Origin: Escherichia coli
Lineage (GTDB): Bacteria > Pseudomonadota > Gammaproteobacteria > Enterobacterales > Enterobacteriaceae
Length of the DNA: 353 nt
NCBI RefSeq assembly: GCF_003334385.1
Contig: NZ_QOWN01000195.1
Direction: 5' to 3' (one strand)
Position 1 is the first letter of the stretch. Each line of letters starts with the position of its first letter. The notes beneath the pieces were generated by a model, which did no database searches, was not told where the DNA came from, and worked only from the letters and a program-made list of their open reading frames with translations. Positions 1 to 353 of this stretch are shown here, piece after piece. Made by a program: the position numbers and the translations under genes.

Positions 1-353
1 TGGTCACCCACGTACTGGGAGACAATCACCGGCAGCCCCTGGAAGGAGCCACCCAGCAGGGTCATGTCCGGGTATTCCTTCTGACCCAGCGCATTTTTAC
101 GCATGGACAGTGCCAGGGCATTGGTGCTGGACATCAGCCAGACCGCACCGGTGGGCTGCAGGTTTGCTGCCACAAACTGTCCAAACGCAGCCTCTGCATC
201 CGCATCCGGGTTACCGGTTGATGCCGTGCCCTTCACATCATGGGTGATGGACGCCGGGGAGACATCTGCCACTGCGGCTTTTTTCGGGTCCACAAAGTCT
301 GTATCCAGACGCGCCACCACCGCTTCCGCCAGCGCATTACGGACCAGTGCATC
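1..353 (-). CDS. Internal fragment of a phage major capsid protein, HK97-like fold (partial at both ends; N-terminus lies beyond position 353, C-terminus beyond position 1)
   Basis: Seen in sequence: the reverse complement read from position 353 downward (first codon 353-351 GAT, last complete codon 5-3 GAC, positions 2-1 begin the next codon) gives 117 codons with no stop: DALVRNALAEAVVARLDTDFVDPKKAAVADVSPASITHDVKGTASTGNPDADAEAAFGQFVAANLQPTGAVWLMSSTNALALSMRKNALGQKEYPDMTLLGGSFQGLPVIVSQYVGD. Plus-strand frames have stops at 82-84 (TGA), about 217-219 (TGA) and about 248-250 (TGA). Codon usage is biased in the enterobacterial manner. Product call is from established knowledge plus recollection, not a search: the segment ...TLLGGSFQGLPVIVS... 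resembles the conserved C-terminal core of HK97-family major capsid proteins (HK97 gp5 has ...GLPVV... in an equivalent position, and family members typically show ...LLGxPVxxS...), and the preceding G-x-V-x-L ... N-x-G spacing is similar. Confidence that this is a real CDS is about 0.9; the figure given is for the capsid product call. Confidence 0.6.

Follow-up and report, generated by a model that had tools for sequence, protein, structure and literature searches.

A head gene fragment common to E. coli prophages and Shiga-toxin phages

The stretch of DNA analysed here, which we call the window, is 353 nt long and has 60% G+C. Its minus-strand frame 0 is open over all 353 bases (117 codons), and stops occur 1, 1, 1, 4 and 5 times in the five other frames. 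The entire window (positions 1–353, minus strand) is an internal fragment of a prohead-protease / major-capsid fusion gene, covering codons 442–558 of 645, with codon 442 at positions 351–353 and neither start nor stop included. In E. coli E2865, the full gene of 645 codons occupies positions 19739–21676 of locus L001, on the minus strand, and encodes WP_000173032.1.

An open frame of this kind is weak evidence by itself, because 36% of dinucleotide-preserving shuffles of the window have some fully open frame (minus frame 0 is open in 2.9%). The claim that the window is coding therefore rests on homology, DNA identity to annotated genes, and the pattern of substitution. The translation, 117 aa long, aligns with PHROG 617 ('major head protein') with E=4.4e-37, at positions 442–558 of the 626-position profile, and the DNA is 100% identical to CDSs annotated 'phage major capsid protein' in E. 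coli. When the window is compared with the 94%-identical copy in Stx2a_F349, 17 of the 20 differences lie on codon position 3, and 16 of the changes at codon level are synonymous against 3 that are not. Comparison with the 76%-identical copy in Salmonella phage FSL SP-016 places 62 of 86 differences on position 3, with 47 synonymous and 21 non-synonymous codons. Both sets of differences point to purifying selection on minus frame 0. Coding is the sole function of the window. Short ORFs in the other frames, including a 45-aa plus-strand ORF with a GTG start at positions 110–247, are without support; a scan of the window with Rfam returned no match at E ≤ 1, and no promoter-like or terminator-like sites were found in it.

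The gene is widespread. Of 5426 complete E. coli genomes, 1249 (about a quarter) have matches to the window, often in multiple copies (up to 7 per genome), and 907 records match at 99% identity or higher; hundreds of complete chromosomes carry it at 100%. In addition, 92 phage records match, mostly those of Stx-converting phages, 35 of them at 99–100% and the rest at 90–99%. The Stx-converting lambdoid phages 2851, JLK-2012 and YYZ-2008, for example, carry the window at 99–100% identity. The annotations under these matches, in E. coli and phage alike, are all capsid or prohead protease, and depositors of phage genomes already label the gene 'major head protein/prohead protease'. The head gene to which the window belongs is well known and common to E. 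coli prophages and Shiga-toxin-converting phages, and nothing in the window is novel; the significance of its assignment is limited mostly to annotation.

Domain architecture of the full-length protein

Gene identity, domain architecture, predicted fold, neighbourhood and conservation were all read from the output of the tools named in each case. The 117-aa fragment has no match in Pfam (at E ≤ 0.001) or in NCBIfam, so the capsid assignment depends on the full-length gene present in identical copies. The original prediction, made from the letters of the window, had placed it inside a phage or prophage major-capsid coding region and named PF05065 and TIGR01554 as the families that the 117-aa translation should match. 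The fragment matches neither, whereas the full 645-aa protein matches both: Phage_capsid (PF05065) aligns with aa 386–635, an interval that includes the window, at E=5.9e-14, and TIGR01554 (major_cap_HK97) aligns with aa 204–584 at 78.1 bits, against a cut-off of 27.5. Together with the predicted HK97 fold and the phage structural genes that flank identical copies (see below), these matches bear out the placement. A short internal capsid fragment can evidently fall below Pfam and NCBIfam thresholds, yet stay identifiable via PHROGs and DNA identity.

The 645-aa protein is a fusion, consisting of a prohead serine protease (aa ~20–153), a helical delta/scaffold region (aa ~193–265) and an HK97-fold capsid domain. 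PHROG 617 spans nearly all of it (aa 1–639, E=8e-262). At the N-terminal end, Pfam Peptidase_S78 (PF04586) matches aa 48–152 with E=5.4e-8, PHROG 80 (head maturation protease) matches aa 1–281 with E=1.9e-41, and TIGR01543 (HK97 protease) aligns with aa 48–154 at 46.4 bits, under its 59-bit cut-off. Alignment of this domain to HK97 gp4 by hhalign, with 97% probability, puts H55 and S110 opposite His65 and Ser114 of gp4, and all 111 fusion sequences keep both residues. With a profile match and a conserved catalytic His/Ser pair, the N-terminal domain, which lies outside the window, can be classed as a prohead serine protease of the HK97 family. The NCBIfam model for prohead protease/major capsid protein fusions, NF045541, scores 54 bits over aa 48–287 only, far from its cut-off of 525 bits. 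Our literature search for experiments on this protein, its head module or the Stx-phage fusion found nothing specific.

Four PHROGs of 'unknown function' match one end of the capsid gene only. PHROGs 6538 and 26508 (193 and 144 profile positions) match the C-terminal part, and PHROGs 13361 and 30146 match the N-terminus. These four seem to be clusters built from truncated or split calls of this ORF, not independent families.

Among 1.84 billion representative proteins searched, 12,587 relatives have E ≤ 0.001; tightening the limit to 1e-30 leaves 1,189 clusters at 50% identity. Of the best 150 relatives, nearly all are full-length fusions of about 640–670 aa. A few relatives of about 460–480 aa start at the equivalent of aa 193–196 and hence consist of the delta and capsid regions without the protease. 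Two representatives of about 1090 aa (P0003 and P0012) have an extra region of ~440 aa ahead of the protease-capsid fusion, which has matches among PHROGs of unknown function and to one labelled 'ATPase' (PHROG 10401); a longer fusion or an artefact of gene calling may account for it.

Predicted structure of the capsid domain

An AlphaFold2 model of the full protein, built from a family alignment of 117 sequences, has a mean pLDDT of 85.7. It comprises a beta-rich N-terminal domain (aa 20–153), disordered linkers at 155–189 and 268–281, two long helices (195–222 and 229–262) typical of a delta/scaffolding domain, and a well-predicted C-terminal domain. When the model is compared with the PDB using Foldseek, the top 50 matches are all capsid or capsid-like particle structures, among them those of Bxb1 (9D9W, E=1.5e-15), D3, Muddy, T5, 80alpha/SaPI1, the GTA particle and HK97. 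The HK97 entries 1OHG, 2FT1 and 3E8K match with E of about 1e-10 to 1e-9 and target TM-scores of 0.64–0.72 (1OHG, E=8.4e-11 and 0.64), and 2FTE with a target TM-score of 0.70. The shell domain of the model has the HK97 fold, in a structure that is predicted rather than solved. A search of PDB sequences with the single protein gave a borderline match only (9D9W, E=0.0015), and a family profile was therefore needed; with it, the Bxb1 capsid is matched at E=2.2e-18.

Three parts of the shell domain can be located within the window, all on the minus strand. Positions 291–353 (codons 442–462) encode nearly all of a long alpha-helix, residues 441–462 of the model, which follows hairpin strands at 413–430 and has pLDDT values of mostly 78–97. 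Going by canonical HK97 topology, we read this helix as the spine helix of the P-domain. Positions 255–257 are the codon for Pro474, which lies in the conserved motif VSPASIT and is the only invariant residue in the 117-sequence alignment. Positions 1–209 (codons 490–558) encode predicted helices 490–503 and 517–525 and strands 511–515, 542–545 and 548–552, with pLDDT of 94–98; on the same topological grounds, this segment would correspond to most of the A-domain, or axial domain.

A glycine at the putative cross-link site and a candidate internal start

In HK97, chainmail is formed by an isopeptide cross-link between Lys169 and Asn356, with Glu363 as the catalyst. Alignment of the family to HK97 gp5 places these three residues opposite K406, G611 and E618. 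This hhalign alignment is of low confidence (probability 12.5%, E=0.0023), although collinear over 240 columns, and was used just for mapping the three residues. Codon 611 lies about 160 nt past window position 1, toward lower plus-strand coordinates. The corresponding residue is Asn in 103 of the 117 family sequences and in Salmonella SP-016, and Gly in all three E. coli copies checked. The Lys-Asn-Glu set of HK97 is thus incomplete in these E. coli copies, as far as this low-confidence alignment can be followed. The heads of these E. coli phages probably lack chainmail of the HK97 type, and the distribution of Asn and Gly suggests that cross-linking was lost in the E. coli lineage.

A second feature concerns the junction between the protease and delta regions. 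A Met occurs within a few columns of aa 193, where the delta region starts, in 102 of 111 fusion proteins, even though the linker that ends at Met193 is otherwise poorly conserved (about 33% column conservation) and members of the family are only 40–50% identical. The ATG of Met193 is at L001 21098–21100, about 750 nt beyond window position 353, and an AGGA motif lies at about 21111–21114. In the E. coli gene and in that of Salmonella alike, AGGA is found 9–10 nt upstream of the delta-start Met, despite differences in the encoded residues, and among the homologues are stand-alone genes whose start coincides with the Met193 point. The conserved Met, the AGGA motif and the stand-alone homologues together suggest a nested, protease-free product. 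We accordingly raise, as a tentative proposal that we consider rather less probable than its opposite, a two-part picture in which initiation at Met193 would yield a delta-capsid protein without protease, and E. coli heads with Gly611 would be free of HK97-type chainmail. If so, delta-capsid made alongside the full fusion would set the ratio of protease to capsid in the prohead.

The head module and its prophage context

In E. coli E2865, phage 2851 and Salmonella phage FSL SP-016, the genes lie in the same transcription order. An HNH endonuclease (annotated 'restriction endonuclease' in SP-016) is followed by terS, terL, the protease/capsid fusion, a small ORF and the portal gene, and then by genes for the head-tail adaptor, head closure, a gp10-like protein, the tail terminator, the major tail protein and the remaining tail proteins. 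The capsid gene thus belongs to a head-morphogenesis module that also includes terminase, portal and head-tail adaptor genes, with the portal after the capsid and not before it. The small ORF of E. coli, which lies between the fusion and the portal at L001 19473–19694 (minus strand), encodes 73 aa and matches PHROG 829, of unknown function; in SP-016, a 55-aa ORF fills the slot.

This arrangement agrees only in part with the original prediction, which had assumed the order terminase, portal, protease and capsid, with portal and protease at higher plus-strand coordinates than the window and head-tail connector genes at lower ones. The connector genes do lie at lower coordinates in the identical copies. 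The portal, in contrast, is downstream, at lower coordinates, and the immediate upstream neighbour is terminase: the order found is terS, terL, the protease/capsid fusion, the 73-aa ORF, portal and adaptors. Protease sequence is indeed present at higher coordinates, nominally as predicted, but it forms the N-terminal domain of the 645-aa ORF itself and is not a separate gene. For this module, one cannot take the textbook gene order of HK97 for granted. The broader expectation, that the surrounding DNA is phage or prophage, is supported; matches to HK97-fold capsids were obtained and the genes flanking identical copies are of phage type, the two points on which it might have failed.

The 100%-identical copy in E2865 lies in an integrated lambdoid prophage of roughly 43 kb, as estimated from annotated gene coordinates. 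It has lysis, regulatory and tail modules (tail fibres through gpJ), an antiterminator, a LexA-family repressor-like protein and three tRNA genes, and past the tail-fibre genes comes the effector gene nleL. The far, opposite end of the prophage has an integrase-type gene, whose annotation reads 'Arm DNA-binding domain-containing protein'. No stx gene is annotated in the 40-kb stretch of E2865 that we inspected; in phage 2851, stx2c is found upstream of the lysis genes.

The portal gene occupies L001 16943–19527 and L002 8948–11527 (minus strand in both), about 0.5–3 kb beyond window position 1 at lower plus-strand coordinates, and exists in two forms, set apart by a single G in a homopolymer tract. 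In the G6 form, seen in phage 2851, a single 859-aa ORF encodes the portal domain (aa 2–467) and an extension of roughly 400 aa. In the G5 form, seen in E2865 and Stx2a_F349, a 454-aa portal is followed by a 419-aa ORF with an ATGA stop/start overlap, a two-gene layout like that of SP-016. The G5 form is called 'frameshifted' by RefSeq and a pseudogene by the depositors of Stx2a_F349, labels that are probably wrong. The two forms are both common among complete genomes of E. coli: at least 341 records have the exact G5 context and at least 747 the exact G6 context. In the extension, or 419-aa ORF, a 162-nt (54-aa) repeat occurs in 3.3 tandem copies with 95–98% identity (L002 9408–9940 and L001 17409–17941). 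A role of this repeat region in head decoration or as a fibre is only a guess.

These data allow other origins of the window to be weighed. It is conceivable, if unlikely, that the window derives from a decayed prophage remnant in which the capsid gene is a non-functional relic. The sequence is present in up to 7 copies per E. coli genome, and neighbouring genes are disrupted in related copies. For example, IS629 truncates the large-terminase gene that immediately precedes the capsid gene in Stx2a_F349 (L003 4740–6353), an instance of decay in some copies of the module, and the E2865 portal is annotated as frameshifted. Against this, the reading frame is intact across the window, the E2865 copy is a full-length 645-aa ORF in an apparently complete morphogenesis module, and the supposed frameshift in the E2865 portal turns out to be two intact ORFs that overlap at ATGA, as in SP-016. 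Isolated phages carry the identical sequence, moreover, and the substitution patterns argue for purifying selection.

An origin in a capsid-forming satellite (PICI-like) or a gene transfer agent, as opposed to a true phage or prophage, is very improbable, and we reject it. HK97-fold capsids of a cf-PICI (9GYI) and of GTA particles (6TB9) are among the structure and sequence matches, but these are distant (14–17% identity), and identical copies of the window reside in lambdoid genomes of 43–58 kb with full tail, lysis, regulatory and integrase modules, as well as in isolated Stx-converting phages. Finally, the notion that the frame is open by chance, or that the functional element is instead the 45-aa plus-strand ORF or a non-coding RNA, is effectively refuted: open frames of this length are not rare in shuffled sequence, but the minus-frame translation matches PHROG 617, its third codon positions take most of the substitutions, the Rfam and promoter/terminator scans of the window found nothing, and annotated records that match the window place solely a capsid CDS there.

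A proposed model for head assembly

We conclude, with a probability of roughly 95%, that the window encodes a stretch of the capsid-shell domain in a phage head gene found in lambdoid prophages of E. coli and in long-tailed Stx phages of the 2851/Pankowvirus type. How the fusion protein might function can be drawn by analogy from the gp4/gp5 assembly paradigm established for HK97. The delta region would drive the formation of capsomers and of the prohead around the portal. Facing into the shell, the tethered protease domains would remove both themselves and the delta region, with cleavage likely to occur in the disordered stretch around aa 268–290. The shell subunit that remains, of about 355–375 aa, would then expand into the mature head as terminase packages the DNA. 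The window would supply this mature subunit with its predicted spine helix and the larger part of its predicted A-domain. Pathway, self-cleavage, position of the cleavage site and stoichiometry are all inferred from the HK97 case.

Comparison with known systems

The closest known system is phage 2851, whose major head protein/prohead protease (YP_009909243.1, gp60) is essentially the same gene in the same neighbourhood. The window is 99.7% identical to the phage 2851 DNA, with one synonymous change, and the full 645-aa proteins differ at 4 residues. Equivalents are found in JLK-2012, YYZ-2008, BP-4795 and Stx2a_WGPS6 (genus Pankowvirus). We see no substantive difference between these systems, except that the window may come from a non-Stx prophage such as that of E2865.

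HK97 resembles the present system in several ways. The protease domain is homologous to gp4 (97% hhalign probability), with the aligned His65 and Ser114 conserved; a predicted delta-like helical region ahead of the shell domain is shared; and the adaptor, head-closure, gp10-like and tail-terminator genes follow downstream in the same order. HK97's own order, however, is terS, terL, portal, protease, capsid and adaptor, with protease and capsid as two genes, whereas here the protease and capsid form one ORF and the portal follows. Sequence similarity between gp5 and the capsid domain is also low, at only about 14–18%.

Among solved structures, the closest both by profile (E=2.2e-18) and by fold (E=1.5e-15, 20% identity) is the major capsid protein of Bxb1 (9D9W/9D9X). 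Bxb1 is a distant actinobacteriophage relative, and its solved chain comprises 394–397 aa, versus 645 aa for the protein described here.

In the literature that we searched, capsid-protease fusions are mentioned only in actinobacteriophage genome announcements, where they are routinely annotated (PMC6606914, PMC9671004, PMC12760985). These fusions, and the proteins represented by NF045541, likewise combine protease and capsid in one polypeptide. Judging from its profile score, NF045541 represents the same architecture in a different lineage.
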